From Christensenellaceae bacterium (lineage in GTDB: Bacteria; Bacillota; Clostridia; Christensenellales; Borkfalkiaceae): DNA of 64,000 bases. Below, one piece after another: positions 1 through 53,877 of the stretch. The notes beneath the pieces were generated by a model. The model was not told the DNA's origin. It worked only from the letters and a program-made list of their open reading frames with translations, and made no database searches. Position numbers and translations under genes: made by a program. The stretch lies in assembly GCA_045613545.1 (NCBI GenBank), contig JAZLBD010000001.1:27332-91331 (forward strand), given 5' to 3'. Position 1 is the first letter of the stretch. Every line of letters begins with the position of its first letter.

Positions 1-3000
1 GAATGTTACCATTATTATCGTAAGAGAACAAAACGGTTTTATTCATTACCTTGTTATCTTCACGGATAAGGCGATTAAGTGCATCGTATTGATAACGCAT
101 TGCAAGTTCACCGTTTTCATATACCTTTTCGATATTACCCATTACATCGTAAGCATATCTCAAGCTATCCACAAGCGCAAAGTTTTCACCATGCTTGTTG
201 CCAAAACGAATCGTTGCAGGCATATTCGTTGCATGGTCTCCCACCTTATGATATACAATACTTTCTTCGGCAATCTTATCAGTGCCAATGCAAATTGCTT
301 TACCCTTATTTCTACCTATAACGTCAAGTTTCGGTTTTACAGTACTACCGTTAACGGTAATAGTTTCCAACGCCTGCGTAGAATCGGTTTTATAACTGTA
401 AGTATATTCTTGCGGAACTGTACCTACAATCGTTTTCTTTGCAAGTTTCCCCGCAGAATTATAAGCATACGCTTCTCCATAACCGCTGGAAATTTGCACA
501 TCGCTACTATCTACTTCGTAAACTGCCGTTACGTTATCAAGCTCATCACGTTCAAACTTATAGTTTTTACCCGTAACTTTATCTTTTAACGTGTCAAGTT
601 GACCTTTCTTATCATAAACGTTTTCAAGTTGAACAACGTTATTTGCCGTCAATTTTAGCAAATTACCCTTACCGTCTTTTTCGCTTACAAATACGTCACC
701 TGCTTTATACGTTGCATTTATGGTTTCCTTCGCTACAGCGCCGTAACTATCCTGCGTTTCCGCATAACTGTATTGAACATAATCCACAACACCGTTAAGT
801 TCAACTGCTTTCAGTTTACGCTTATGGTTATACGCATATTTCACGTTATTATTACCGCTCTTGAGTTCAACGACTGCACCATAACGATATACTTTTTGCG
901 TGCTGTTTTCTTCGCCGTCTTCCGTGCTTTGCGAAATTGCCGTAACCGTATCGTCGTAATCTCTTCCGTAAGCAAATTTACTACCGTTGGGGAGGATTTC
1001 TTCTCGAACAGTGCTCGTTCCGTCTACATAACCGAATTTCTTCTTATTTTCGCCCGTTTCGTCTATTTCGGCAAGAACTTTACCATTGTCATCATATTCC
1101 GTTTCGGTATAGAACTTGCTACTCGTATCCAAAGAATTATACGTATACGATTTGATTACGTTTCCCTTATCGTCGTAAACGCTTTCTTCTATCGTTTTAC
1201 CCGTCGTATATTCCTCGCCTTCCACATAGCTTTCCGTTCTGATTACGTCGCCGTATGCGTTATAATTGTATTTCTTATACGAAACAATTGGATCTGCAAG
1301 ATTGCTGTACGTAACTTCCGCTCTTTCTTGGATAAGCTTTTGATTATCGTCGTACGTATAGTCCACCACCGTCGTTTGCGTAGTTTGTTGTTCTACGCCG
1401 CTTGTATCTAACCATTCGGAAATCAAAATTTCGCTTGTCGTTTTACTTACAGGATTGTTAAATTGGTCGATAACCGTTGTTTCCATATCTCCGCTTTCAA
1501 ATACATACGAATCCAATGCGGTTTTATAAAGCGAAGAACAAGCCGCTCTAATAACGACTTCTTTCGGGTCGATTTGCTGTTCGCTACCAATCCAATAAGG
1601 GTTATGCGTATATTGTTCTGCCGTGCAGACAAGATATTGATTACTTGCCACGTCAAAATCCGCTTTGCGATAGCCTGTACAGTTACCGCTTTCATCGAAA
1701 TAATATCTTTCAGCCACAAGATTTTCCGTTACGGTCGTAGAAGTAATCGGATAGCTGCTATAAGGGGTATAGGAAATATTCGCTTGAGAAATAAAGTTAT
1801 TCCCCGTCGTTTGCCCATCTACGGCAATATTATCTACCGTTGAATAGTGAGAAATTTGTGTAGGACGATTGTAGGAATAATTAATATTCGTCAACAAGCC
1901 GTTTTTCGTTTCTTCCAACGAATAAATATTATTTCCAGAGTAGTTAATCGTAAGGTTTTCTCCCGTATCATATGCAATATTCGTTACGACATTGCTACTG
2001 TTATAAGTAAAACAAGTTTTTCTGCCTCTCGTGTCGATAATTGCCGTCAACTGATTTTGTTCGTTATAACTGAACACAACCTGTTTTTCGGTGTTATCAT
2101 ATACACGAGCAATACGACTCTTATCCTCGGTTCCTTCGTAATAACTTTCATATTCGATAACCGTATAATTTTCGTATCTATCATATAAAGCAACAAATTT
2201 GCCCTTGGCATTAAATCCTTTGATGTATTGCCCGTCGGTTAAGAAATTTACAGCCAATTGAAGTTGCATCTTTTTATATTGTTTTTCAATAGACAAATAC
2301 TCCACGACCATTTTTTGGAATTGGTCCAAATAATAGTCCTTTTTCTCGCAAATGAGCTCCATTTGCGAATTATAATGCTCAACTTGTTTACCGTTTTCAG
2401 TTTGTATATTAGCAATATTCGCACATTGGTCTTGCAAAATATATTTTTGATCCGTTAATTCATTGTACTGATTTTCAATTTCCGTCTTTTTTACCATAAG
2501 ATAATCTTTCTGTTTTTTCAAATCAGTTCTTTGTGCACCAATTTTACCCTCAAGGCTTGAAAAATAGGTTCTTGAATATCCCTGTTGATGGTCACTATCG
2601 CTAGCCGCACTATTATAATACGTTTCTTGAATATCAAGAATTGATTTTTGAGTTTCCATAGCCAATTCTTGGTCATCAAGATACCCCAATTCGTCTAAAC
2701 AAAGACCATTTTTATTCGCAATTGAAGTTAATTGTAGGTCAATCGAACGTTCCTCCTGAGAATACGAAGTATTTTGATACCCTAAAACACGTACTTGCAA
2801 TAACGCTGAAATATAATTCATTGCTTCACTTACAGGCAAAATCATTTCACTTTTAGCTAAGCCAGCTTTAAATTCTTCACAACTATAAGCACTCAATTCA
2901 TGGTTAGAAAACTGGTCAACGATAGTTCCCGTATTCGTATTAAACCTAACAAATTCTTTTAAACCGTACTCATATTCCTTAAAAGCATTTTTAACTTTTT

Positions 3001-4846
3001 TGTATTCATCTGTTCTGTGTTCGAAATAATCTACGTTTTTAACGCCCTCAAGCTCCGTCATTGCTTTTAAGCCCGCCGTAGACTTATATTCGCAAGTTAC
3101 AGGATACGTTTGATTGCTCTGGGTATACGTCATTCTTCCTTCTGCGTCTACAACAATCAAACTCTTATCTGCAATGTATTTTTTAGTTCCCGAATTGTTG
3201 ATATAATAGTAATAATCATGAAAACCGTGCTTGTCCCCACTAGCGTCGGTGTAAATATAGTCCCCATCGGCATATTTTACAAGCGTTTCATTCAAATTCA
3301 ATCTAAAATTGCCACCCAACAAATAATTGTCGGCATTTCTCTTATGAATATGATAAATCCCCATACCCATAACTGAATTTTCCGGTTTAACGTCGCAAAT
3401 CGACGTTACCATACTACCCGTTGCAAGATTAACTTCACCCGTTGCAATGCCTGCAAGCGTAAACGTTTTCTTTGTCGGACGAACGTTTTCATTCGTCAAA
3501 TACTCAATTTCAATCACGGGCAGAGTATTAGTCATTGAAAATTCTATTTCGTAATTATTATATTGATAAGGCGTTAAGTAGACAATAAAATCCCCTGCGC
3601 TTGCTTTAAATTGCGAAGTAATATCCAACTGCACTTCATCATCCGCAGACGCGTGATACGATTTATTGTCACAATAAAAATATCCACTGCTCTTTACTGT
3701 TTTTAGAATTAATTTCACATTGGAAATAGAAGCTTCCATCAAATTGATTAAGCTCTTTTTGATTGTAAGATCCGTTTTATATTCATACGAAGAAGTTCTT
3801 GAGACTCGGATATTACTATAACTATTATTAGTATACCAAGGACCATAGTTAATTCCCGAACCATAACTCGAATAGATGTCTCTATAATACGTTTGCTTGG
3901 TAACAAGATTGTTTTGACTCGTCACAACTTGTGGGTCAATCATAACGGGGAACGCTCTATCGGCAGCATTCACCCATTCTTCGTTCGCAACGACAGCAAA
4001 CATAAACTTTCCGTCTTCAGACGGCTCCAACTCATAATAAACGTCGTCGCTCGCAACGCCGTTTGCATCGTACATATAAGGACTGGGAATGGTGAACTCT
4101 ACCTTTTGTTCTACCGTTCCGTCTTCTTTTTCCTTTTCGGTATAAAGTTCCAAGCTTTCGTTATCATCCGAAAGACGAAGTTTCAACCCTTCCGTTTTCA
4201 ATGCGAAAAGGTATCTATAATCCGCAGATTTTTCTTTAACGATAATATTTTCTTTAAGGTTATTCCCCAGCAAGCAATATTCAAGGTCGGTATCCTTCTC
4301 AATATTTTCGTAAACAGCCGAACTATTGATATGTTTTGCTACGCTTTGCGTACCGTTATTTACCTTCAAAACCGTTTCTGCTACGTCTTCAACGTTTTTA
4401 TTGGCAACAGAAGCAACCTGTTTTCCAAGATACTCCCAAGAAAGTTGCTTGTCCGATTTAGAAATTGCAACTTTTTTACCTTTATGTACTTTGGAAATTC
4501 GGGTTTTAAACTTACCGCTTTTAGTTTCAAACGCATCCTCTTTTTCCTCCAAAGAATTATCGATATGCTTCCATTTCTTTTCTTCTTCGTCAAAGAAGCT
4601 CACCGATTCCGCATTAAACACAGACTTAACCGTGCCGTTATTTAAAACGTAGTGTCGAGAGTTTTCATCTGTTCGCGTTTCGTCCTCATGCAATACAGCA
4701 GGGTCATCCCATTGTTCATGTTCCTCTTGCGGAACTTCTGCACCCACTTGTGCCTCAACAGCCAGTTTATACGCCTGTTGTTCTTCCAAAGCAGCGTTTT
4801 CCGCCGTTTGCTCATCGTTCGCATTTTTTAATTTGATAATTCCCAT
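1..4846 (-). CDS. RHS/YD-repeat family protein (polymorphic-toxin type), N-terminal ~1615 codons; the C-terminal (toxin) end lies beyond the window start
   Basis: I translated the minus strand by hand from ATG at 4846-4844, with AGGAGG about 10 nt upstream: MGIIKLKNANDEQTAENAALEEQQAYKLAVEAQVGAEVPQEEHEQWDD... The three minus-strand ORFs listed in 1-4846 are all in another frame, so I infer this frame stays open to position 2; I translated only spot segments. Spot checks: 3478-> PTKKTFTLAGIATGEVNLA (DUF6531-like), 1378-> QTTVVDYTYDDNQKLIQER, 1198-> KTIEESVYDDKGNVIKSYT, 58-> DNKVMNKTVLFSYDNNGNI (YD repeats). It is absent from the ORF track because it has no in-window stop. Confidence 0.85.
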   Translation of the reverse strand, partial: MGIIKLKNANDEQTAENAALEEQQAYKLAVEAQVGAEVPQEEHEQWDDPAVLHEDETRTDENSRHYVLNNGTVKSVFNAESVSFFDEEEKKWKHIDNSLEEKEDAFETKSGKFKTRISKVHKGKKVAISKSDKQLSWEYLGKQVASVANKNVEDVAETVLKVNNGTQSVAKHINSSAVYENIEKDTDLEYCLLGNNLKENIIVKEKSADYRYLFALKTEGLKLRLSDDNESLELYTEKEKEDGTVEQKVEFTIPSPYMYDANGVASDDVYYELEPSEDGKFMFAVVANEEWVNAADRAFPVMIDPQVVTSQNNLVTKQTYYRDIYSSYGSGINYGPWYTNNSYSNIRVSRTSSYEYKTDLTIKKSLINLMEASISNVKLILKTVKSSGYFYCDNKSYHASADDEVQLDITSQFKASAGDFIVYLTPYQYNNYEIEFSMTNTLPVIEIEYLTNENVRPTKKTFTLAGIATGEVNLATGSMVTSICDVKPENSVMGMGIYHIHKRNADNYLLGGNFRLNLNETLVKYADGDYIYTDASGDKHGFHDYYYYINNSGTKKYIADKSLIVVDAEGRMTYTQSNQTYPVTCEYKSTAGLKAMTELEGVKNVDYFEHRTDEYKKVKNAFKEYEYGLKEFVRFNTNTGTIVDQFSNHELSAYSCEEFKAGLAKSEMILPVSEAMNYISALLQVRVLGYQNTSYSQEERSIDLQLTSIANKNGLCLDELGYLDDQELAMETQKSILDIQETYYNSAASDSDHQQGYSRTYFSSLEGKIGAQRTDLKKQKDYLMVKKTEIENQYNELTDQKYILQDQCANIANIQTENGKQVEHYNSQMELICEKKDYYLDQFQKMVVEYLSIEKQYKKMQLQLAVNFLTDGQYIKGFNAKGKFVALYDRYENYTVIEYESYYEGTEDKSRIARVYDNTEKQVVFSYNEQNQLTAIIDTRGRKTCFTYNSSNVVTNIAYDTGENLTINYSGNNIYSLEETKNGLLTNINYSYNRPTQISHYSTVDNIAVDGQTTGNNFISQANISYTPYSSYPITSTTVTENLVAERYYFDESGNCTGYRKADFDVASNQYLVCTAEQYTHNPYWIGSEQQIDPKEVVIRAACSSLYKTALDSYVFESGDMETTVIDQFNNPVSKTTSEILISEWLDTSGVEQQTTQTTVVDYTYDDNQKLIQERAEVTYSNLADPIVSYKKYNYNAYGDVIRTESYVEGEEYTTGKTIEESVYDDKGNVIKSYTYNSLDTSSKFYTETEYDDNGKVLAEIDETGENKKKFGYVDGTSTVREEILPNGSKFAYGRDYDDTVTAISQSTEDGEENSTQKVYRYGAVVELKSGNNNVKYAYNHKRKLKAVELNGVVDYVQYSYAETQDSYGAVAKETINATYKAGDVFVSEKDGKGNLLKLTANNVVQLENVYDKKGQLDTLKDKVTGKNYKFERDELDNVTAVYEVDSSDVQISSGYGEAYAYNSAGKLAKKTIVGTVPQEYTYSYKTDSTQALETITVNGSTVKPKLDVIGRNKGKAICIGTDKIAEESIVYHKVGDHATNMPATIRFGNKHGENFALVDSLRYAYDVMGNIEKVYENGELAMRYQYDALNRLIREDNKVMNKTVLFSYDNNGNI

Positions 4847-4887: not shown

Positions 4888-5445
4888 TTAATTTTCTAAA
4901 GTCATCGCAAAAATATGCGTAAACATATTATCTGGCAAAACTATTTCTTTTATAATTTTCCTTTGCATAATCTCACAGTTGATATGATGGAAATGGACAA
5001 GATGTGTAGAAGCTCCAGACGTTATAACCGTTCTTACTGTAGACGTGTTTTTCCCATACCAATCGGTATTTTTCTGATCACTATACGGCATATGCGACCA
5101 ATCTATAAACGGAACCCTAATGATTTCCTCGCTTAAATCATCATATACGATTTTGAAATATTCGTTGGTGTCGCCCCAATATGCAAATCCGATGAGATGC
5201 AATTTTGTAGCAAGATCGTTTATCGCTATTTTTTGCCTATCACATACAACGTTATCAAACTGTCCAAAATTAAAGCAAAACTCTACGTCTTCCAAAACGT
5301 CTTGTTCCTTCAATTTTACGTCCGATTTCAAAATACAAATGTTATCAAGCCCAAACTCTTTTCCTTCAATTTCTTTCGGCAACTGTCTATAAACCATTTT
5401 GTGGTTGTAATGCTCTTTAAGATTTATTGGAATAAAACGGCTCAT
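4888..5445 (-). CDS. hypothetical 185-aa protein, translationally coupled to the upstream gene and immediately preceding the RHS gene
   Basis: ATG at 5445 overlaps the TGA of the upstream ORF (ATGA at 5442-5445). There is no TM segment or signal peptide, and I recognise no family (MSRFIPINLKEHYNHKMVY...IFAMTLEN). Confidence 0.55.
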   Translation of the reverse strand: MSRFIPINLKEHYNHKMVYRQLPKEIEGKEFGLDNICILKSDVKLKEQDVLEDVEFCFNFGQFDNVVCDRQKIAINDLATKLHLIGFAYWGDTNEYFKIVYDDLSEEIIRVPFIDWSHMPYSDQKNTDWYGKNTSTVRTVITSGASTHLVHFHHINCEIMQRKIIKEIVLPDNMFTHIFAMTLEN

Positions 5446-6383
5446 TTTTCCTTTCGCACCTCCAAAAGAAAATCGTAAACAACCTTTTCAAGTTCTTCTA
5501 TTTCTTCTAACTTCCTTAAAACGCTATCCAAACGTTTCGTTATATAATCGTAATTATTCTGCGCTTTAACCTTCCAGAAAAGCGATAAAATGTTTGAATA
5601 TCCGCTTACCAAAGACATTATCGACTCTTGTTTTTGTTGGTTTGTGAGGAAAAATTTAGTCTTTGCCAAAGTGTAATAAAAAGTTTTCAAATCGTTTAAA
5701 TAACTCGTTATTTTTTCAATATTTTCACGTGCAGCATCTAAATCATAAGAAACTATTCTGCGCAATTCGTTTAAGTTTTTCAACGAGTTTTCACGGTTAT
5801 CGTTAATTTTTTCTTCGTCAATATATTTCCAAATATCAAACGTACCAACGTTCTTCTTTTTCTTAAGAATATAACAAGAACGTTTCCGATTCAAAATGCC
5901 CTTTCTAAACATCGCATTTGCCAACAATAAATTATCCAGAGAAATAATTTTTTCTTGATACTCATAACTGTTTCGATATTCATGGTCAACTACGTTAGCT
6001 TCCTTATTTTCAACGTCATAACCATACGCCAAAATAAAATGTGGAACATGCTGAATTTGATAAGTTTCTGGACGACTTTCCAAATAATAACAATCCACGC
6101 CCATAATAACAGGATACCCTTTATCAATACAACGAATCAATTTCGCTCTATTAACATTGCAGTGCTCCCTTTTATAACCCAAAAGTTTTTCCAATTTTTC
6201 TTCATATAAGAAACCTTCTTTACCTGCATTAAAATTATTTTGAATTAACGTGAACGCATTGAGCAGAATAGCATCCCTGTCAACTCCAAAGCACGCAATT
6301 CCCGCCATTAATTGATGGTAATAACAACTCTTAAAAAAGAAGTCGTTAAACGGTCTAACCCCAATCATTTTATTCTTTTTCAT
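5442..6383 (-). CDS. BtrH-like papain-fold (Cys/His) protein with a helical C-terminal half; putative carrier-protein-dependent acyltransferase or peptidase
   Basis: N-terminal Cys in FKSCYYHQLMAGIACFG, then GYPVIMGVDCYYLESRPETYQIQHVPHFILAYGYDVENKEANVVDH. This matches my memory of the BtrH_N (PF14399) pattern. GGAGG lies 9 nt before ATG 6383. Confidence 0.5.
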   Translation of the reverse strand: MKKNKMIGVRPFNDFFFKSCYYHQLMAGIACFGVDRDAILLNAFTLIQNNFNAGKEGFLYEEKLEKLLGYKREHCNVNRAKLIRCIDKGYPVIMGVDCYYLESRPETYQIQHVPHFILAYGYDVENKEANVVDHEYRNSYEYQEKIISLDNLLLANAMFRKGILNRKRSCYILKKKKNVGTFDIWKYIDEEKINDNRENSLKNLNELRRIVSYDLDAARENIEKITSYLNDLKTFYYTLAKTKFFLTNQQKQESIMSLVSGYSNILSLFWKVKAQNNYDYITKRLDSVLRKLEEIEELEKVVYDFLLEVRKEK

Positions 6384-6606
6384 TTACTTTTTCCTCCACG
6401 TTATTCGCTATATCCCCCACGGTTTTCCAATCGAAAACGCCAAGTTCGTCAAGTTCAAATTCTATTCCGAACTCTTCTTCCAATTCCACAACAATACTCA
6501 CAAACGTCAAGCTGTCCAAACTTAATAATTTTAGTTCACTATCTAACGTTACTTCTTCGTCTATTGCACAGGCATTCCTAATTATTTCTACAACTCTATC
6601 TTTCAT
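6370..6606 (-). CDS. acyl/peptidyl carrier protein (second copy)
   Basis: 78 aa and acidic, with the phosphopantetheine-site motif LSLDSLTFVSIVVELEEEFGIEF. ATGA overlap with the adenylase stop (6603-6606). Confidence 0.8.
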   Translation of the reverse strand: MKDRVVEIIRNACAIDEEVTLDSELKLLSLDSLTFVSIVVELEEEFGIEFELDELGVFDWKTVGDIANNVEEKVNEKE

Positions 6607-7859
6607 ATTCGCAACTTCTTTCCGCTCGCAGTTCGAGCCAGTTCCTCCACTTTTTCTATTTTGCTTGGTACAATATTAGGATTTAATCTTCCAACGAGTT
6701 GTTTACGAAACTCCTTAATTTCTAAATCGCCAATATATTTCATACAAATTACCGTACCCGCGTCCGTAAATTCCCCAAAAACCAAGCAATCGATTATTCC
6801 GAAAATTTCCTTAACGACATTTTCAATCTCTTCAGGATACACGTTTATCCCTGCTTTTATCAGCATCCCGTCTTTCCTGCCGTCGATATAAAGATACCCA
6901 TCTTTATCAAAATGCGCAGAATCCCCGGTACGCAGCCAACCCTCTTGAATCTTTTCTTGCGTATTTACTGTATCCAGATAATACCCTTTCATTACGCTCG
7001 CCGACCGAACCCAAAGTTCTCCTTCTACTATTTTTAATTCTACGCTGCCTATGGCTTTTCCCACACTTCCCAATTTTTTCGCAAAATCATCAGGCAATAA
7101 TGCGCTTACGCGCGGACTGTGTTCCGTTAAACCATAAACGTTATAAAACTTTGTATTAGGAAATGCCTTAGCTACATTTTCGCTTGTACGGCGGGTTAAA
7201 ACCTCCCCGCTTAATACCCCAACTTTAATAGGGAACGCTTTATCCTTAGCTATAATCGCCAACGTTTGATATAAGGTCGGCGTGGCGCAAAACACGTCTA
7301 TATCCTTTTGCTGAAAAAAGGTTAAAAGTCGCTGTGGCATAAATGCTTCTTCGTAAAAATATATCGTCAACCCACAACATAAGGCATACAATATTTCCCC
7401 AGTTAAGACTGCAATGTGGACAAGCGGACGTGCAACACAAATCGTTTTTAAACCTTGCAAATCAAAATACGTTTCGATGTATTGCAGATTTGAAATAATG
7501 TTCTCGTGCGTCAACATTACGCCCTTGGGTTTTCCCGTCGTACCACTTGTAAACATTAAAAAAGCCAAATCTTCGCTCGGCGCCTGCGGAGAATTAAAAA
7601 CTACGTTTTGAATATACTCGTAATTCTTTTTCCCATATTCTTTCGTTATAGGAACCGCAACGTTACCGCCTGCAATACAAGTCAATATAGAAAGAGCTTG
7701 TCTCTCACGTGTTTCGCCTTCGCATAACACAAAGCGTCTTTCTTGTTTAACCGTCTCCGAAAGATTGAGCAAATCCTTATAAGTCAATCCACTATTGGCA
7801 AATGCTATTCTATCCGCGTACCGTTCCATTTTTGACTTTAGGTATTCCCAGAGTGTCAT
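6603..7859 (-). CDS. stand-alone class I adenylate-forming enzyme (AMP-binding family), short 418-aa form
   Basis: Core motifs LMFTSGTTGKPKGVMLTHENI, YGLTE, GWLRTGDSAHFDKDGYLYIDGRKDGMLIKAGINVYPEEIE and C-terminal SGKKLR. ATGA overlaps at both ends. Confidence 0.9.
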   Translation of the reverse strand: MTLWEYLKSKMERYADRIAFANSGLTYKDLLNLSETVKQERRFVLCEGETRERQALSILTCIAGGNVAVPITKEYGKKNYEYIQNVVFNSPQAPSEDLAFLMFTSGTTGKPKGVMLTHENIISNLQYIETYFDLQGLKTICVARPLVHIAVLTGEILYALCCGLTIYFYEEAFMPQRLLTFFQQKDIDVFCATPTLYQTLAIIAKDKAFPIKVGVLSGEVLTRRTSENVAKAFPNTKFYNVYGLTEHSPRVSALLPDDFAKKLGSVGKAIGSVELKIVEGELWVRSASVMKGYYLDTVNTQEKIQEGWLRTGDSAHFDKDGYLYIDGRKDGMLIKAGINVYPEEIENVVKEIFGIIDCLVFGEFTDAGTVICMKYIGDLEIKEFRKQLVGRLNPNIVPSKIEKVEELARTASGKKLRI

Positions 7860-8089
7860 AAGTATTTCTCCGTTAACGATATAAGACTTGACAGGGTTTG
7901 TAAATTTTCCGGTTGCAAATCGTCGTCCAAAAACGCTACGCTGAAGGCTTCTTCTATGGATACGACAAGCGTAACCAACGATAAACTATCCACGCCGCTT
8001 TCCATTAAAGGCTCGTCTTCTTCTAAATACGCGCCTATCGTTTCTTCTGCTATCTTTACGATTTTTTCTTTGATTTCTTCTCTATTCAC
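7856..8089 (-). CDS. acyl/peptidyl carrier protein (first copy)
   Basis: 77 aa with motif ESGVDSLSLVTLVVSIEEAF. GTG start at 8089 preceded by AGGAG at 9 nt. Confidence 0.75.
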   Translation of the reverse strand: MNREEIKEKIVKIAEETIGAYLEEDEPLMESGVDSLSLVTLVVSIEEAFSVAFLDDDLQPENLQTLSSLISLTEKYL

Positions 8090-8909
8090 CTTTTAACGCT
8101 CCTGAAATTTTTCGTTCAATATCAATGATATAAACGATTTTTTGATACAAATCGCTATAAGCTTTGACCTTATCCACTTCTTCCTTTTTGATTTCTTTCA
8201 ATCTTCGAAGGTGTACGTCAAAATAAATTTTATCCATATAAGTGATTTCTTCACGCAATAGCGCTTTCACTTTCGCATTTACGCTATAATATTGCTCCAA
8301 ACGTTTTCTGGATACTCTCAAAACGCCAATCGCCGATTCCAACGCACCTAGGCTATTCGGCAATTCTTGTACGTCAAAATCTTGCATCGTATATTGCAAC
8401 GTCGCATAATCAGGCAAAGTCATCGTTCTATCTTCCATCCTGTAAATGCAAACGGCGCCGTCGTATACTTCCATAAACCTTTCTTCGGTAAAAGTCCCCT
8501 CAGAAAGTGGATATTGATTAATCCATTCCAAATTTCGATTTACGCAAATATAGTGGTCTTCACGCCAAGAAGAGCGCTTATAGTCCGTAAAAAAGGCGGT
8601 ATTTACGCGAATTAAATACAAATCGTCATCCGCTTGGTTTCTCAACAGTTCTAACGCCTCTTTAGCGGAACAAGCACGATATTCGTGTCTTACTACACCG
8701 TATTCTTCCGCAATATCTTGCAATCTCGGTAAATAGCAATAGTTTTGATACATAGCCCCGTGTGAAAAATCATCAAACGCTTGTTTCAAACTGATAAATG
8801 AATTTCCGTATAAATTAGAAACATCGTAATATCGATTTAACCAAGCGAGAAAATAACTCTCCACACAAGACAACGCCAACGCTTCGGATATTTCTTTTTT
8901 ATTAATCAT
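8082..8909 (-). CDS. divergent BtrH-like Cys/His protein (second paralogue-like member)
   Basis: N-terminal Cys in ALSCVESYFLAWL, later LYLIRVNTAFFTDYKRSSWREDHYICVNRN, and a helical C-terminal half like the 313-aa neighbour. The similarity is weaker, so confidence is lower. Confidence 0.35.
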   Translation of the reverse strand: MINKKEISEALALSCVESYFLAWLNRYYDVSNLYGNSFISLKQAFDDFSHGAMYQNYCYLPRLQDIAEEYGVVRHEYRACSAKEALELLRNQADDDLYLIRVNTAFFTDYKRSSWREDHYICVNRNLEWINQYPLSEGTFTEERFMEVYDGAVCIYRMEDRTMTLPDYATLQYTMQDFDVQELPNSLGALESAIGVLRVSRKRLEQYYSVNAKVKALLREEITYMDKIYFDVHLRRLKEIKKEEVDKVKAYSDLYQKIVYIIDIERKISGALKGE

Positions 8910-26757: not shown

Positions 26758-27364
26758 TTGTGGGATTGCGCCCACGCCGTTGTAGAATATTTCTACCGCT
26801 TGTTTTCTTTTGCCATCCTTCTTTCCCACTTTATAAACGACGAGCATATCCATACGGATTCTACAAAATCGGGCGTCATAGCCGAGTCCCTACAAGGGAT
26901 TCGGCAACTAAATAAATCCTTGCGGATTTGTGATATTCGTCTAACGACGAGTGATATTGCCTTTCGGCAGTTATATTTGCCTACGGCAAGTTGTGGATTT
27001 ATTTAATATCACTTCTTCGAGAGAAATATAAGAACCTGCTAAAGCAGAACCTTGAATTTTTCTCTCGAAAAATATAACTGCTTGTAAAACAAGCAATATA
27101 ACTTTTAGCCACAAGGCTAAAAATAAAACTAAATTATCTTAATCTTTTGTGGTAAAGATAAAGCCCACCATATTTCGCCTTAAAGCGAAGTATAGTGGGC
27201 TACACTTTTGTTATAAACTAAAAATCCCTATATGTCATAGTGAGAATCTGCTGTCAACAAAATATATACGAGCGATACAAAGTTTCTATTATAAAAATTT
27301 TTATACGTAAGCAATACGCATAAAGAAGGATTCGGAATTCTATATCCGAATCCTTCTTTTCGTT
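26758..27364. other. ORF-poor, hairpin-dense intergenic block; candidate large structured RNA, strand unresolved
   Basis: There is no ATG on the plus strand between about 26700 and 27231. There are more than 12 stems of 6-17 bp (listed in findings), and the block ends in a 15-bp hairpin at 27322-27359. Confidence 0.3.
27322..27364 (+). terminator. strong hairpin, terminator-like on the plus strand
   Basis: Stem aaagaaggattcgga (27322-27336) / tccgaatccttcttt (27345-27359), followed by tcgtt. No plus-strand CDS lies upstream of it. Confidence 0.45.
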
Positions 27365-50382: not shown

Positions 50383-50497
50383 ATTTTTACTCCTTACTTA
50401 CGTTAATTACTTAGTAGTATAGCACTTCAAAAAAAGAATGTCAAGCCTATGAAAAAGATTCTTTAAGAAACCACAAAAAAGAGCCCCTTTCAACGAC

Positions 50498-50530
50498 AAA
50501 AACGGCTTGTCGCTCAGACAAGCCGTTTTT
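50498..50530 (-). terminator. native ppdK terminator, now separated from ppdK by the islet
   Basis: Stem acggcttgtc (50502-50511) / gacaagccgt (50517-50526), extended by A:T pairs. Its right arm lies inside the left direct repeat. Confidence 0.65.
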
Positions 50531-50572
50531 TGTTAGGCTAAATTAGTTTCTAGGATTTTTAATATTCGCTTG
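50516..50572. repeat. left direct repeat (att-like): last 9 codons plus stop of ppdK and 27 nt downstream
   Basis: agacaagccgttttttgttaggctaaattagtttctaggatttttaatattcgcttg. Identical to 53878-53935 except for one T in the T-run. Confidence 0.9.
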
Positions 50573-50908
50573 AAGAGATGTGTATAGTGAAAAGTTGGTC
50601 GTGTATATTTATACCCTTTTTCGAGCGTTTTGTTTGTCTTATACATACATGTTGCATATTTTGTCGAATTATGTATATTTATACAAAATGCGGTAGCTGT
50701 AGGTTTTTGGTGGTTTTTCACCCAATTTTTCGTAGCTGGTCTTGACAGTCCTTGGTATTTTGAAAGTGCGTTAATCCCTTATAAAACCTAACTTTTTCAG
50801 CATTTTTCAAGTGCTTTTTATTGCTAGCCTTAACAACACCCACAATCACCGCAAGTCTTACTATTTTTAAGGTTCTAAAAACGCCCTTATTTTTAGTTCT
50901 CATCAACG

Positions 50909-51060
50909 CCTAAAACGTTGATTTTCTTTTTCTTGAGCAAGAACACGTACGCCACGAGAGATACGATTGCATCAAACGCATTGCCGATGCCGAATAACAA
51001 CGCTATGCCGATAAGCGTAGGTTGCCAAGCCCGTAGAACGTGGAATCGAACACGTTTTGG
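50909..51060. repeat. 152-bp direct repeat, copy A
   Basis: 151/152 identical to 52935-53086 by hand alignment (a/c difference in ...cgagAgatac...). Confidence 0.9.
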
Positions 51061-51171
51061 AACGCGTAAAGCATAATGAACACCCATTCAAAATAATACA
51101 GATAGCCGACGGAAAAAATCCCGACGGCTATCTAAAAAGTGAGGTGAAACAACAATGTTAATACTTAATTT

Positions 51172-51927
51172 TTATTCTATTTCCAAAAACGGTTTCAATT
51201 TCCATAATTGTCCGTAAACAAGTTTCCTTGCATTTGCTCCATCAAAAGGCGTTACCACCCCGATTTCTTCAAGCCCTTCAATAATTTCCCCTGCTTTGTT
51301 ATAACCCATCTCCATACGACGTTGGATCATTGAAATTGACGCACTATTCGTTGCCATAATTAACTTACAGAGATATGTAACGCTTTCTTTTATCGCCTCG
51401 TTTTCCGCTAAATAGTTAGACAACTTCGCGCCATCTTCATTATCTACGATAACCGATTTTGCAATTTGGAAAAATTCTTTATATTTTTCTATCGAGCAAT
51501 CTCTTTGTTTCGGGCTTTTAGGCAAATCCGCACGTGCCACGTACCACTTACCATCGTTTCCTATTTCCAGCTTCTCTTTAATTTCTTCAATTTCTTCTTC
51601 TACCCTTTCTACTTCCTGCTCCCATTCTTCATAGGCTTCTTCGTCATCTTCGTCGGGTTCTTCACATTCGAGTTCTTCCACCCTTTCTTCAAGCTCTTTC
51701 AACTCTTTTAATAACGCTTCTATATTCGCCGTATTCTGTTCTTCAAAAAACGAGTTGATATCACAATTATAAAATTTTGCGATTTTCGGCAAATATTCCA
51801 ATGATGGTAACGCCTCGCCTTTTTCCCATTTTGATACGGACTGCGGACTTATATTCAAATAATCCGCCAAATCCTTTTGCGTTTTCTCACTCTGTAATCT
51901 TATTGCTTTTAATCTTTCGTGAAACAT
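51172..51927 (-). CDS. XRE-family HTH protein with an acidic coiled-coil linker and a C-terminal FtsK-gamma winged-helix domain
   Basis: N-terminus LKAIRLQSEKTQKDLADYLNISPQSVSKWEKGEALPS (HTH_3). C-terminus SASISMIQRRMEMGYNKAGEIIEGLEEIGVVTPFDGANARKLV; compare the SpoIIIE/FtsK gamma pattern ASxSxLQRRxRIGYxRAARLIDxMExxGVVxPxxGSKPREVL. GGAGG lies before ATG 51927. Confidence 0.75.
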   Translation of the reverse strand: MFHERLKAIRLQSEKTQKDLADYLNISPQSVSKWEKGEALPSLEYLPKIAKFYNCDINSFFEEQNTANIEALLKELKELEERVEELECEEPDEDDEEAYEEWEQEVERVEEEIEEIKEKLEIGNDGKWYVARADLPKSPKQRDCSIEKYKEFFQIAKSVIVDNEDGAKLSNYLAENEAIKESVTYLCKLIMATNSASISMIQRRMEMGYNKAGEIIEGLEEIGVVTPFDGANARKLVYGQLWKLKPFLEIE

Positions 51928-51963
51928 ACTATACCTCCGATTTTTTCCATTGTAAATATTGTA

Positions 51964-52473
51964 TTATATCCGTAAAATGGACGCTTTTTCATAAACAACC
52001 TTTAATGTTCCTGCAAACGGTATTACTATTCCCAGAGCTTTAATCCCTTCAATAATACAATTCGCCAAGTCAAAATCAATTCTTAATTCCACCTTTAATA
52101 AACCAAGAGAAACCAAACTATTCTCTATCAAAAATTGATAAATGCTCACCAGCATTTCTTTAATATTTTGATTGTTTTCCAAATAAAAACTTAATTCTTG
52201 AATATCTTTTTTTTGGTCAACAACGTCTTTTGCTAATTGAAAAAAAGCATCTAACATATCTACGCTTATATTTTCCGAGCTTTCTTTCTCAAAAAATATA
52301 TTCATATCACAATTATAGAACTTTGCGATTTTAGGTAAATATTCCAATGATGGCAAAACCTCGCCTTTCTCCCATTTTGATACGGACTGCGGACTTATAT
52401 TCAAATAATCCGCCAAATCCTTTTGCGTTTTCTCACTCTTTAATCTTATTGCCTTTAATTGTTCGTGGATCAT
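51964..52473 (-). CDS. XRE-family HTH protein, paralogue with a degenerate gamma-like C-terminus
   Basis: The first ~60 aa are almost identical to the 51172-51927 product. The C-terminus NSLVSLGLLKVELRIDFDLANCIIEGIKALGIVIPFAGTLKVV is collinear with the gamma domain but has lost the QRR/GY residues. Confidence 0.7.
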   Translation of the reverse strand: MIHEQLKAIRLKSEKTQKDLADYLNISPQSVSKWEKGEVLPSLEYLPKIAKFYNCDMNIFFEKESSENISVDMLDAFFQLAKDVVDQKKDIQELSFYLENNQNIKEMLVSIYQFLIENSLVSLGLLKVELRIDFDLANCIIEGIKALGIVIPFAGTLKVVYEKASILRI

Positions 52474-52934
52474 ACCACACCTCCGCGTTTTTCATTGTAA
52501 ATATTATACCATATCCACAAAACGCCGTCAATGACCGATTATTTGAGTTTTACCACTCACAAATCAACCACAGGTTGATTTCCCTTACGGGAGTGGGATA
52601 GCAAACGAAAAAACCATAAACCCATTTGCTACCCCACAAAGAGGTGTAAACGCAAACGACATACTATAAACAACTTTATTTATTCCCGTTCATTAGGAAT
52701 TTGAAAAAATAGAACACCAACAATATGGGAAACAATAACCACATAGCGTATCTCCTTGCAACTTATTTACAATGGAATTATAACATAGAAAATATGACAA
52801 CATCCGTCAGGTTTATAAAAATTTTTGAAAATTTTTATTCCCCCATTATATTCAAAACAAAAATCTTTACTCTATAAATCACTTTGAACTGAAAAGTAAA
52901 GATTTTTGTTGTCGTATAAAGTTTTTATTCAATC

Positions 52935-53086
52935 CCTAAAACGTTGATTTTCTTTTTCTTGAGCAAGAACACGTACGCCACGAGCGATACGATTGCATCA
53001 AACGCATTGCCGATGCCGAATAACAACGCTATGCCGATAAGCGTAGGTTGCCAAGCCCGTAGAACGTGGAATCGAACACGTTTTGG
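52935..53086. repeat. 152-bp direct repeat, copy B
   Basis: See copy A. Start-to-start distance is 2026 bp. Confidence 0.9.
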
Positions 53087-53162
53087 GACATCTGACCTCT
53101 TTTGTAAAAATATTTAATTTTTCGCTCGGCTTATCTATAGCATATTCATAAATTGGGATTTG

Positions 53163-53723
53163 TCAATATCTACTGCCATAAATCAATTTCGCTTTTTCAG
53201 TATATTTCCGTACAAACTCGGTCTTTGCGTTTGTATAAGCATCTCTGTTATGCTCGTACTTTTTCCATAAATTTAATTTCAATACTTCGTATTGTTTTGC
53301 TACATCCGAATGTTCTATTAGATAATCCCTAAAATACAATTCATTGTTATCGCCAGCATATCTTAAGTGCAAATGAAACACTCGTTTGGCAAATCCATTC
53401 TCAGTATATCCTTTATTAAAGGACAACCCGTTCTCACTTTGCGACATACAAATATAACCGCAATTTATTATCTCCGCTTTGTAATCAAGCAAATTTGTCC
53501 CCTTTGGAATCTCCACAAGAATATCTACAATAGGTTTTGCCCAAATAGAAGGAATAACGGTGCTTCCGATATGACTGATTCTCTCATTGTTCGTTAAAAC
53601 TCTTTTCAATAGTTTTTCTTCTTCCAAATACCATTCTTTCCAACACTCTTGATGTTCTGTTAAAATGATAGGAAACAACTGCCACAGTTCTTCTAAACTC
53701 ATTTCGGTTAATTTTTTGCTCAT
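53163..53723 (-). CDS. GrpB-family (nucleotidyltransferase-fold) protein
   Basis: IGSTVIPSIWAKPIVDILVEI, FHLHLRY and the C-terminal AYTNAKTEFV are typical of GrpB/UPF0157. I prefer ATG 53723 (GGAG 7 nt upstream). Confidence 0.7.
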   Translation of the reverse strand: MSKKLTEMSLEELWQLFPIILTEHQECWKEWYLEEEKLLKRVLTNNERISHIGSTVIPSIWAKPIVDILVEIPKGTNLLDYKAEIINCGYICMSQSENGLSFNKGYTENGFAKRVFHLHLRYAGDNNELYFRDYLIEHSDVAKQYEVLKLNLWKKYEHNRDAYTNAKTEFVRKYTEKAKLIYGSRY

Positions 53724-53877
53724 TATACACTCCGTCAAATTCTTATTTATCGGTGAGTTTATTATAACATAAAATAAAATTTAATTCAATTTGTTTTGCG
53801 TGGGCAAAAGAAAACTCGACTTTTCCAAGTCGAGTTTTATAAATTATTCAATTTAAATCCCTAAGAGTGACGCCCTT

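Follow-up and report, generated by a model that had tools for sequence, protein, structure and literature searches.

A predicted thiotemplated transacylation module with two CtaG/BtrH-type enzymes in the operon of an RHS toxin from a Christensenellaceae bacterium

We have analyzed a 64,000-nucleotide stretch of DNA (hereafter the window) from a Christensenellaceae bacterium (GenBank assembly GCA_045613545.1, contig JAZLBD010000001.1, positions 27,332 to 91,331 of the forward strand). Five minus-strand genes located between window positions 5442 and 8909 encode two small carrier proteins, a stand-alone adenylase, and two papain-like proteins. Together, these genes probably form a thiotemplated transacylation module of the CtaG/BtrH type that belongs to an accessory operon of a large RHS toxin. 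The module is part of the 3′ half of an 11-gene operon (the cassette), and this operon leads directly into the toxin gene. The original prediction, which was made from the DNA letters alone and treated the five genes as a self-contained unit, was too narrow in this respect.

The five open reading frames (ORFs) occur at exactly these limits in the ORF list of the window, and neighboring frames overlap by 4 to 14 nucleotides, which suggests that their translation is coupled. From 5′ to 3′, they encode a 275-amino-acid (aa) candidate transacylase 1 (8082-8909, minus strand, as for all operon features given here), carrier protein A (77 aa, 7856-8089), the 418-aa adenylase (6603-7859), carrier protein B (78 aa, 6370-6606), and a 313-aa candidate transacylase 2 (5442-6383). 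Two carriers with serine attachment motifs flanking an adenylase had been proposed, and both the ORF limits and Pfam agree with this assignment. The quoted strings GVDSLS (carrier A), LDSLT (carrier B), SCYYHQ...HFILAYGYD, and SCVESY...DHYICV are all present. Both small proteins match the Pfam PP-binding profile (E values of 1e-12 and 6e-9), and their NCBIfam matches to ACP, DltC, AsbD, and AmcB are all below threshold. As had also been stated, the operon offers no partner of the usual assembly-line kinds: condensation, thioesterase, and ketosynthase domains were not found among its proteins with Pfam or NCBIfam.

For comparison, we retrieved 35 loci with an alignment of the 313-aa protein from a collection holding one genome per species. 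Nearly all of these loci are from Christensenellaceae, Candidatus Scatosoma, or unclassified Clostridia metagenome-assembled genomes (MAGs). Some 20 independent loci, with identities as low as 30-40%, share the same eleven genes in the same order, and a chance arrangement is therefore ruled out. The order begins with a regulator-like gene, followed by genes for a 417-aa protein, a membrane protein of about 170 aa, a kinase, and an NTP_transf_5 protein. It continues with the 275-aa protein, acyl carrier protein (ACP) A, the adenylase, ACP-B, and the 313-aa protein, and it ends with a 185-aa protein that lies just ahead of the RHS gene.

The adenylase is a stand-alone member of the ANL superfamily, with a strong Pfam match to AMP-binding (E value of 9e-48) and a weak one to AMP-binding_C. 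Its core motifs were expected to be intact, and this is borne out in the cassette orthologues, which keep A3, A5, A7, A8, and the A10 lysine (FTSGTTGKPKGV, YGLTE, TGD, GRKD..G..P.E.E, and SGKKLR, respectively; the A3 consensus across orthologues is FTSGxTGxxKGV). The nearest NCBIfam families are the long-chain-fatty-acid and o-succinylbenzoate coenzyme A (CoA) ligases, and the best solved relatives are feruloyl-CoA synthetase, FadD5, FadD13, MenE, and 4-chlorobenzoate-CoA ligase. The AMP-binding profile covers model positions 155-384, which correspond to adenylase residues 89-294, and the N-terminal subdomain is divergent. This subdomain is about 50 residues shorter than in the solved relatives, as judged from the alignment of adenylase residue ~96 with residue ~146 of those proteins (146 in 8WEV).

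The A4 region helps to narrow the choice of substrate. In adenylation domains that activate amino acids, the aspartate of an FDxS-type A4 motif binds the alpha-amino group. This motif is not present in the window adenylase, which instead reads RPLVHIAVL, and all cassette orthologues carry RPL(V/A/M/I)H(I/V)..., comparable to the PLFHxxG of FadD5 and feruloyl-CoA synthetase. Because this is the acyl-CoA-synthetase form of A4, the substrate suggested by the motif is a carboxylic acid that lacks an alpha-amino group, and an acid other than an alpha-amino acid is likely. Thus, of the acid and amino-acid substrates considered originally, the motifs favor the former for an enzyme of acyl-CoA-synthetase type and speak against an alpha-amino acid. 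Distant adenylases in two other loci (L037 and L039) bear FFDVS or FDIF.

The combination of an adenylase with a small carrier is also the logic of DltA and DltC, and the module might therefore decorate an envelope polymer, either teichoic acid or a polysaccharide, in a Dlt-like manner, perhaps shielding the producer or easing passage of the toxin. Carrier B does give a sub-threshold match to DltC (E value of 1.4e-8, 34.6 bits against a cutoff of 68), and the operon also encodes a membrane protein and a possible beta-helix protein that resembles carbohydrate-active proteins. However, homologues of DltB (MBOAT) and DltD were not found with Pfam or NCBIfam, the adenylase lacks the amino-acid-type A4 motif, and the candidate transacylases have neither a signal peptide nor a membrane segment. 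We consider a Dlt-like role improbable.

Both proteins that flank the carriers had been predicted to be BtrH-like Cys/His enzymes, and the two were assigned by different routes. Pfam, which was the check proposed originally, recovers PP-binding twice, AMP-binding once, and BtrH_N on the 313-aa protein, and it recovers nothing on the 275-aa protein. Indeed, the latter has no sequence match in Pfam, NCBIfam, PHROGs, PADLOC, or a PDB profile search, and none of the 110 clusters of its family (0/110) carries a Pfam domain. Because every link by sequence failed, the 275-aa protein can be assigned only via structure prediction. An AlphaFold2 model built from a 32-sequence alignment (predicted local distance difference test [pLDDT] score of 92.3, predicted template modeling score of 0.87) has a papain-like alpha/beta N-terminal domain followed by a C-terminal domain of three long helices. 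When this model was compared with the PDB by Foldseek, the 13 best matches were all to the AziU2-U3 complex (8GS1 and 7WUW), CtaG (9QUZ, 9QVQ, and others), or CcbD (7YN2 and 9DKS), with E values of 8e-5 to 2e-2, probabilities of 0.97-1.0, and template modeling (TM) scores of 0.33-0.55. Chains of the AziU2-U3 complex are on top, CcbD occupies ranks 12-13, and the C39 domains of PCAT1 follow at ranks 14-15. By its predicted structure, then, the 275-aa protein has a BtrH/CtaG-type fold. Across 32 homologues, residues S14, C15, E17, D118, H119, and N131 are invariant, and the proposed Cys/His pair is thus conserved as Cys15/His119. One protein that appeared to be a fusion of a 275-aa homologue with an ACP (P0162) was rejected as a frameshift artefact because its middle part resembles out-of-frame junk.

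The 313-aa protein consists of a BtrH_N domain and a C-terminal half that is presumably helical. It passes the Pfam cutoff for BtrH_N (E value of 4e-10, 40.5 bits against 29.7) and also gives a weak match to Peptidase_C39_2 (E value of 0.002). Its family comprises 56 clusters, all of about 313 aa and all from Christensenellales/Clostridia MAGs. Among 22 homologues, C20, Y21, Q24, D97, H115, and N138 are invariant and D133 is nearly so, such that the Cys/His pair here is Cys20/His115. As with the 275-aa family, the profile of this family found no solved structure by sequence, and DUF4872 was not detected in any window protein with Pfam. The last ~320 residues of nonribosomal peptide synthetase (NRPS) megasynthases in other Clostridia do match the whole of the 313-aa profile. 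This terminal position implies that domains of the 313-aa type off-load chains.

The megasynthases in question are NRPS-like proteins of Lachnospiraceae, Zhenhengia, Clostridium, and Neobacillus that carry a complete 313-aa-family domain at their end (L028-L035; e.g., L028:2465-11017 and L029:7767-10625). In these proteins, the domain appears to stand in for a thioesterase as the terminal release domain.

The layout of transferase, carrier, adenylase, carrier, and transferase had been described as symmetric. It is not, because only the 313-aa enzyme is followed by an additional subunit, a 185-aa protein (4888-5445) that is presumably its partner and for which the 275-aa enzyme has no counterpart. 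The 185-aa protein has no Pfam match, and a profile of its family gives only a weak match to AziU2 in the PDB (E value of 0.08). Its AlphaFold2 model (pLDDT of 94.7) superimposes on the AziU2 chains of 7WUW_A and 8GS1_A with TM scores of 0.81-0.82, a root-mean-square deviation of 2.5 Å, and an E value of 1e-10, and the next match has an E value of 0.013. The protein is thus predicted to be an AziU2-like beta-sandwich. AziU2 is known to pair with AziU3, a protein of the CtaG fold, and the 313-aa and 185-aa proteins, whose genes overlap by 4 nucleotides, can therefore be viewed as a pair of the AziU3/AziU2 type. Consistent with this pairing, locus L001 has three BtrH_N genes, and each is followed by a gene of ~188 aa from the 185-aa family. 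Furthermore, among 1122 relatives of the 185-aa protein in 1.84 billion representatives are natural fusions of 516-537 aa, in which an AziU2-like C-terminal part is preceded by a region that matches BtrH_N, DUF4872, or the 313-aa profile. Together with those encoded in two of the loci, the fusions span 516-540 aa (P0303, P0312, P0336, P0350, P0352, and P0353; L037:11055-12665; L039:15830-17452).

Other relatives are arranged differently. In Clostridium tepidiprofundi (L037), the fusion gene lies beside genes for an ACP, a second BtrH-like protein, an FDxS-type adenylase, and two ABC exporter proteins. In several large proteins of 800-1900 aa (P0237, P0244, P0255, and similar proteins), the C-terminal two-thirds of the AziU2-like domain is repeated 3-6 times in tandem, and faint matches to Rib domains are seen. 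The fold may have a further use as a repeat unit of surface proteins.

A natural replacement also supports this pairing, as does the position of 313-aa-type domains at the ends of NRPS megasynthases; with L001 and the fusions, there are thus four independent observations in its favor. Over 6.3 kb, the operons of loci L007 and L023 have 97.7% DNA identity, and from the start of the RHS gene they are again 92% identical. Between these regions (L007:9884-11437 versus L023:6321-7858), there is zero DNA similarity in a block made up of the 3′ part of the ACP-B gene, the 313-aa gene, and the bulk of the 185-aa gene. The proteins of this swapped block are 69% (ACP-B), 31% (313-aa), and 32% (185-aa) identical. 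Thus, carrier B, transacylase 2, and its partner are exchanged as one unit. The swap resembles that of an allelic specificity cassette and suggests that specificity is being diversified, which is unusual for a biosynthetic enzyme.

The likeness to AziU2 and AziU3 also raises the alternative that the 313-aa/185-aa pair displaces a leaving group on a carrier-bound substrate and thereby creates a strained or electrophilic warhead, to be off-loaded by the 275-aa enzyme. Where azinomycin biosynthesis uses a sulfate, the leaving group here might be a phosphate or a nucleoside monophosphate installed by the Tmk-like kinase or the NTP_transf_5 protein; both genes are conserved just upstream, and AziU3/AziU2 is known to act once a hydroxyl group has been sulfated (PMC12559475, PMC9570651). 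The 185-aa protein has no strong structural match other than AziU2, and chains of the AziU2-U3 complex head the fold matches of the 275-aa model. On the other side, the invariant Cys, His, and Asp residues of the 313-aa family (with Asp133 nearly so) fit acyl transfer, and the operon encodes neither a sulfotransferase nor an amino-group carrier protein (Pfam and NCBIfam gave no match to a sulfotransferase or a LysW-type carrier). Moreover, a reduced core in locus L024 persists without the kinase and the nucleotidyltransferase, and the adenylase motif speaks against an amino-acid substrate that would supply a nucleophilic amine. We give little credence to warhead formation relative to the transacylation module proposed above.

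The gene that follows the cassette encodes a predicted RHS toxin with YD repeats, of which the first 1615 codons lie in the window (1-4846) before the gene runs off its end. Only 41 nucleotides separate the 185-aa gene from the RHS start, and no terminator-like site is present in this gap. An RHS/TEN_YD-shell protein of about 2000 aa follows the cassette in almost every locus that has downstream sequence, and RHS_repeat and TEN_YD-shell domains are present in the orthologues. In L040, a 1957-aa RHS protein is followed by a 117-aa gene and then by orphan RHS C-terminal fragments of 301 aa and 923+ aa. This arrangement in close relatives of an RHS gene, a small gene, and orphan C-terminal fragments is the usual layout of polymorphic toxins. 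The RHS proteins have no signal peptide. In a few loci, other genes are inserted between the 185-aa and RHS genes; these encode proteins of the nitroreductase family (L013:11451-12020 and L027:11489-11998) or a 353-aa protein (L009:11516-12577).

The RHS proteins share an unusually well-kept beginning. The first seven codons in the window encode MGIIKLK (4826-4846), with an AGGAGG ribosome-binding site 8 nucleotides upstream. Across orthologues that are 31-47% identical overall, residues 1-7 follow the pattern M-(G/S)-(I/T)-I-K-(L/I/M/F)-(K/R/M), in which M1, I4, and K5 are invariant and residue 2 is always small. Next come 40-60 unconserved, largely acidic residues and then a conserved block (DPAVL.EDE..TD..SRHY.LNNGT.KSV). 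The N-terminus consists of a conserved tag carried by a flexible linker. When the window and all retrieved loci were searched in six frames, the tag motif MG(I/T)IK(L/I/M)K turned up 19 times, in every case at the start of an RHS protein (that of the window and those of 18 other loci). The tag would offer an alpha-amine, provided that the initiator methionine is removed, and an invariant lysine, and both are kinds of acceptor used by BtrH-type enzymes.

Such a tag on a variable linker might alternatively be a cleavage substrate. If the papain-like proteins were C39-like peptidases that cleave off the tag and linker at export, the carriers and adenylase would serve some other purpose. BtrH_N is close to C39, and the weak Peptidase_C39_2 match of the 313-aa protein and the PCAT1 domains among the lower fold matches of the 275-aa model point in this direction. 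However, each papain-like gene is translationally coupled to a carrier gene, with one adenylase in between, and the top fold matches are transacylases or CtaG-like proteins rather than peptidases. The family also occurs as the terminal domain of NRPS proteins, and a double-glycine site after the tag is not conserved. We find the peptidase alternative very improbable.

The precise roles that the module proteins would play in carrier-delivered acyl transfer can be outlined as follows. A phosphopantetheinyl transferase of the host, rather than one encoded in the operon, would prime both carriers. Judging from its family and motifs, the adenylase would convert an acid other than an alpha-amino acid to the acyl-adenylate and load it as a thioester on carrier A, carrier B, or both. 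The 275-aa enzyme would take an acyl group from the adjacent carrier onto Cys15, and the 313-aa enzyme, as a heteromer with the 185-aa subunit, would do so onto Cys20. Each enzyme would then hand its acyl group to an amine, which might be present on the cargo of the other carrier (sequential transfer, as with CtaG) or on a final acceptor (parallel off-loading, as with BtrH and AsbE). The observations that bear on carrier delivery and an acyl-cysteine intermediate are genomic ones, namely the overlap of each enzyme gene with a carrier gene, the joint exchange of ACP-B and the 313-aa gene, and the NRPS-terminal domains. The chemistry itself is documented for this fold, as the original prediction had noted for BtrH: CtaG relies on Cys11, His128, and Asp144 for a ping-pong transfer from one carrier protein to another, and free amines are the acceptors of the carrier-bound acyl groups handled by BtrH and AsbE (PMC7183216, PMC12865890).

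Several points weigh against this assignment of a transacylation module. The TM scores of the 275-aa fold match are only moderate (0.45-0.55), and a profile-profile comparison with hhalign gave no link between the 275-aa and 313-aa families. A helical C-terminal half of the 313-aa protein is suggested only by weak coiled-coil matches. In addition, the only characterised heteromer of the 313-aa/185-aa kind is AziU3/AziU2, which is an aziridine synthase and not a transacylase. Finally, the proposed mechanism does not account for the Tmk-like kinase and the NTP_transf_5 protein.

The identity of the final acceptor is where our proposals become more speculative. The toxin itself, modified at its N-terminal tag on the alpha-amine of Gly2 after methionine removal or on Lys5, is a tentative candidate, and a small amine metabolite is a tentative candidate of the same standing. 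A cell-envelope acceptor or something else makes up the remaining possibilities. A number of observations argue against the toxin tag as acceptor. Loci L003 and L020 have a full cassette with no adjacent RHS gene, L021 has a full cassette without an intact RHS gene downstream, and L018 has only a 25-codon RHS remnant, in which the tag is retained. The reduced core of L024 lacks an RHS gene along with the kinase and nucleotidyltransferase genes. Swapped alleles of the 313-aa and 185-aa genes adjoin an essentially unchanged RHS N-terminus, and the characterised members of the fold all act on small molecules or carrier-bound intermediates.

Many of the same facts would suit a self-contained small-molecule pathway, yielding an acyl-amine or a short oligomer, that lies on the same mobile, low-GC weapon island as the RHS gene but has no biochemical link to the toxin. 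We judge such a pathway rather unlikely, although it deserves serious attention. BtrH, AsbE, CtaG, CcbD, and AziU3/AziU2 set the precedent for substrates of this type, and related modules with BtrH-AziU2 fusions reside in typical biosynthetic loci with ABC exporters, as in L037. The nitroreductase genes of L013 and L027, the core without RHS in L024, and the full cassettes without an adjacent RHS gene in L003 and L020 also favor this explanation, as does the location of the region in a low-GC island: the guanine-cytosine (GC) content is 35-39% at 1-12.8 kb and 45-50% in the remaining window. However, the operon has no exporter, no gene for acceptor biosynthesis, and no tailoring gene. The junction between the operon and RHS gene is kept across loci even though the RHS proteins have diverged to 31-47% identity, and the short, terminator-free gap ahead of the RHS gene also argues for a connection to the toxin. 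A second reduced module located in the same MAG as L009 (L010:7636-11493) is likewise of little help to this alternative. It comprises genes for a 275-aa protein, one ACP, an adenylase, a 313-aa protein, and a 185-aa protein, and it lacks ACP-B, the kinase, the nucleotidyltransferase, and RHS. Because the TGD motif of its adenylase is changed to TGI and other motifs are lost, this copy is probably decaying, and we rejected it as an example of an RHS-independent module.

A more ambitious proposal is that the operon is a dedicated toxin-acylating machine, in which CtaG-fold transacylases acylate the RHS tag (on the Gly2/Ser2 alpha-amine or Lys5) and one of them is guided by its AziU2-like partner. 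This proposal is speculative and, on the whole, unlikely. If true, the lipid or aryl mark might be required so that the toxin can associate with membranes, be released in a holin-like manner by the membrane protein encoded upstream, or enter its target cells. The RHS protein would then be the first protein substrate of the BtrH/CtaG class and the first covalently acylated RHS toxin, and the system would represent a new way in which Gram-positive gut bacteria export or activate polymorphic toxins. We regard it as doubtful that the module holds the first protein-acylating member of its class.

Regardless of the acceptor, the transacylation module is of interest for several reasons. CtaG-like thiotemplated ligases have only recently been recognised as a class, and the operon adds a minimal natural version that joins the CtaG/BtrH and AziU3/AziU2 branches of the fold. 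The conserved accessory operon and tag provide testable handles on the maturation and release of signal-less RHS toxins in Gram-positive gut anaerobes. Christensenellales are prominent but little-studied human gut commensals, and the system may shape their competition.

The remaining operon genes are less readily interpreted. A leader region (12766-12895) includes a perfect 20-bp hairpin (12799-12843) located 3′ of a TTGACA...TATAAT-like element. A third copy of the hairpin arm follows, just ahead of the ATG at 12758, and the hairpin may be an operator or attenuator. This ATG begins a small putative regulator of 124 aa (12384-12758) that is kept in 10 loci and has no Pfam or PHROG match. The listed 146-aa ORF with a TTG start runs through the hairpin and is probably an over-extension of the 124-aa protein. 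The C-terminal YYRLKRK motif of the regulator is reminiscent of ArpU/sigma region-4 proteins. The next gene encodes a 417-aa Asn/Gly-rich repeat protein (11116-12369) with no signal peptide, which is possibly a right-handed beta-helix; among 14 members of its family, Pfam gave one marginal Beta_helix match (E value of 0.026). PDB profile searches with this protein and with the NTP_transf_5 protein returned nothing.

A 174-aa membrane protein (10579-11103) has 2-3 N-terminal hydrophobic segments and a highly charged tail of 74 aa. By topology alone it might be called holin-like, and a signal-less toxin encoded together with such a protein recalls holin-dependent toxin release, as with TcdE (PMC3369941) or the release of Tc toxin by a type 10 secretion system (PMC10847048). 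This analogy stays weak because no holin or lysin family was detected; neither the 174-aa nor the 417-aa protein gives any match in Pfam or PHROG, to holin and peptidoglycan hydrolase families included. The two genes immediately upstream of the module encode a P-loop kinase of the thymidylate kinase family (9960-10604; TIGR00041, 99 bits against a cutoff of 83), which is the most conserved protein across cassettes, and the nucleotidyltransferase-fold protein identified by Pfam as NTP_transf_5 (PF14907; 8902-9960). Searches of the literature on PF14907 and on RHS operons with ACP, kinase, or nucleotidyltransferase genes revealed nothing relevant.

Two further explanations for the region were considered and set aside. 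A phage origin was rejected because the 275-aa family has no relatives in 2.9 million viral contigs and PHROGs matches the kinase only. Anti-phage defence was rejected because weak PADLOC matches were obtained for the kinase alone. No riboswitch or tRNA was found near the operon, and no tRNA genes were found in the window.

Elsewhere in the window, a gene for a TRAM and RumA-type U5-methyltransferase with an extra C-terminal extension of ~100 aa (12986-14689, minus strand) marks a conserved chromosomal edge of the low-GC island and occupies the same position in L040. A Gut-1 RNA (Rfam RF01706) is located at 26905-26981 on the plus strand; with 53.4 bits it exceeds the gathering score, and it is the sole Rfam match in the window. 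A second low-GC patch (50400-53800, 34-38% GC) encodes two paralogous XRE-type helix-turn-helix proteins with near-identical N-termini (51172-51927 and 51964-52473) and a 191-aa protein (53163-53738).

The original prediction also held that this minimal architecture had not been described. The claim stands in part: the enzyme class and its chemistry are already known from antibiotic pathways, and the logic of the module is precedented in closthioamide, petrobactin, and butirosin biosynthesis, but three features were unreported among the solved-structure matches and in our literature searches. These are two CtaG-fold enzymes acting with a single adenylase and two carriers and no other bond-forming enzyme, a BtrH_N enzyme bearing Cys/His/Asp that is paired with an AziU2-like subunit, and the constant association of such a module with an RHS toxin operon that bears a conserved N-terminal tag.

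Closthioamide biosynthesis in Ruminiclostridium cellulolyticum resembles the module in many respects. It employs a stand-alone adenylase of the acyl-CoA-synthetase type (CtaI), two carriers (CtaH and CtaE), and CtaG, an enzyme of about 300 aa with a papain-like N-terminal domain, a helical C-terminal domain, and a Cys/His/Asp triad. Both systems are found in Clostridia and lack condensation, thioesterase, and ketosynthase domains, and CtaG structures rank near the top when the 275-aa model is compared with known folds. However, the module has no detectable sequence similarity to CtaG, has two CtaG-fold enzymes for one loading enzyme, and is without an ATP-grasp enzyme, a decarboxylase, or a thioamide synthetase. 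Furthermore, one of its transacylases has an AziU2-like partner, and its context is an RHS toxin operon rather than an antibiotic cluster.

AziU3/AziU2 (Vzb10/11; azinomycin/vazabitide; PDB 7WUW and 8GS1) shares with the module a CtaG-fold subunit and a beta-sandwich protein of ~200 aa that are encoded by adjacent genes. It differs in its reaction, in which elimination of sulfate closes an aziridine on an amino acid; this amino acid stems from a pathway with an amino-group carrier protein and a sulfotransferase. AziU3/AziU2 has also been described as functionally unrelated to CtaG. In contrast, the CtaG-fold subunit of the module keeps Cys/His/Asp and adjoins a phosphopantetheine carrier and an adenylase.

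In petrobactin (AsbC/AsbD/AsbE) and butirosin (BtrI/BtrH) biosynthesis, an acyl group on a small carrier is passed to an amine by an enzyme of the BtrH/CtaG fold, and both module carriers give weak matches to AsbD. Those systems use one carrier and one transferase, are part of siderophore or aminoglycoside clusters, and act on the free amines spermidine and ribostamycin. The lincosamide amide synthases CcbD and LmbD (PDB 7YN2 and 9DKS) have a CtaG-like fold, and a solved complex includes a peptidyl carrier protein domain. Their acceptor is an amino sugar, however, their donor carrier resides within a multidomain NRPS-like protein, and they have no sequence similarity to the module. Lastly, the HlyC/CyaC acyltransferases of RTX toxins use acyl-ACP thioesters to acylate lysines of a large toxin encoded in the same operon. 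They have an unrelated fold, draw on the housekeeping acyl-ACP pool, and belong to Gram-negative type I secretion operons. HlyC and CyaC might serve as a purely functional analogy for the proposed acylation of the toxin tag.

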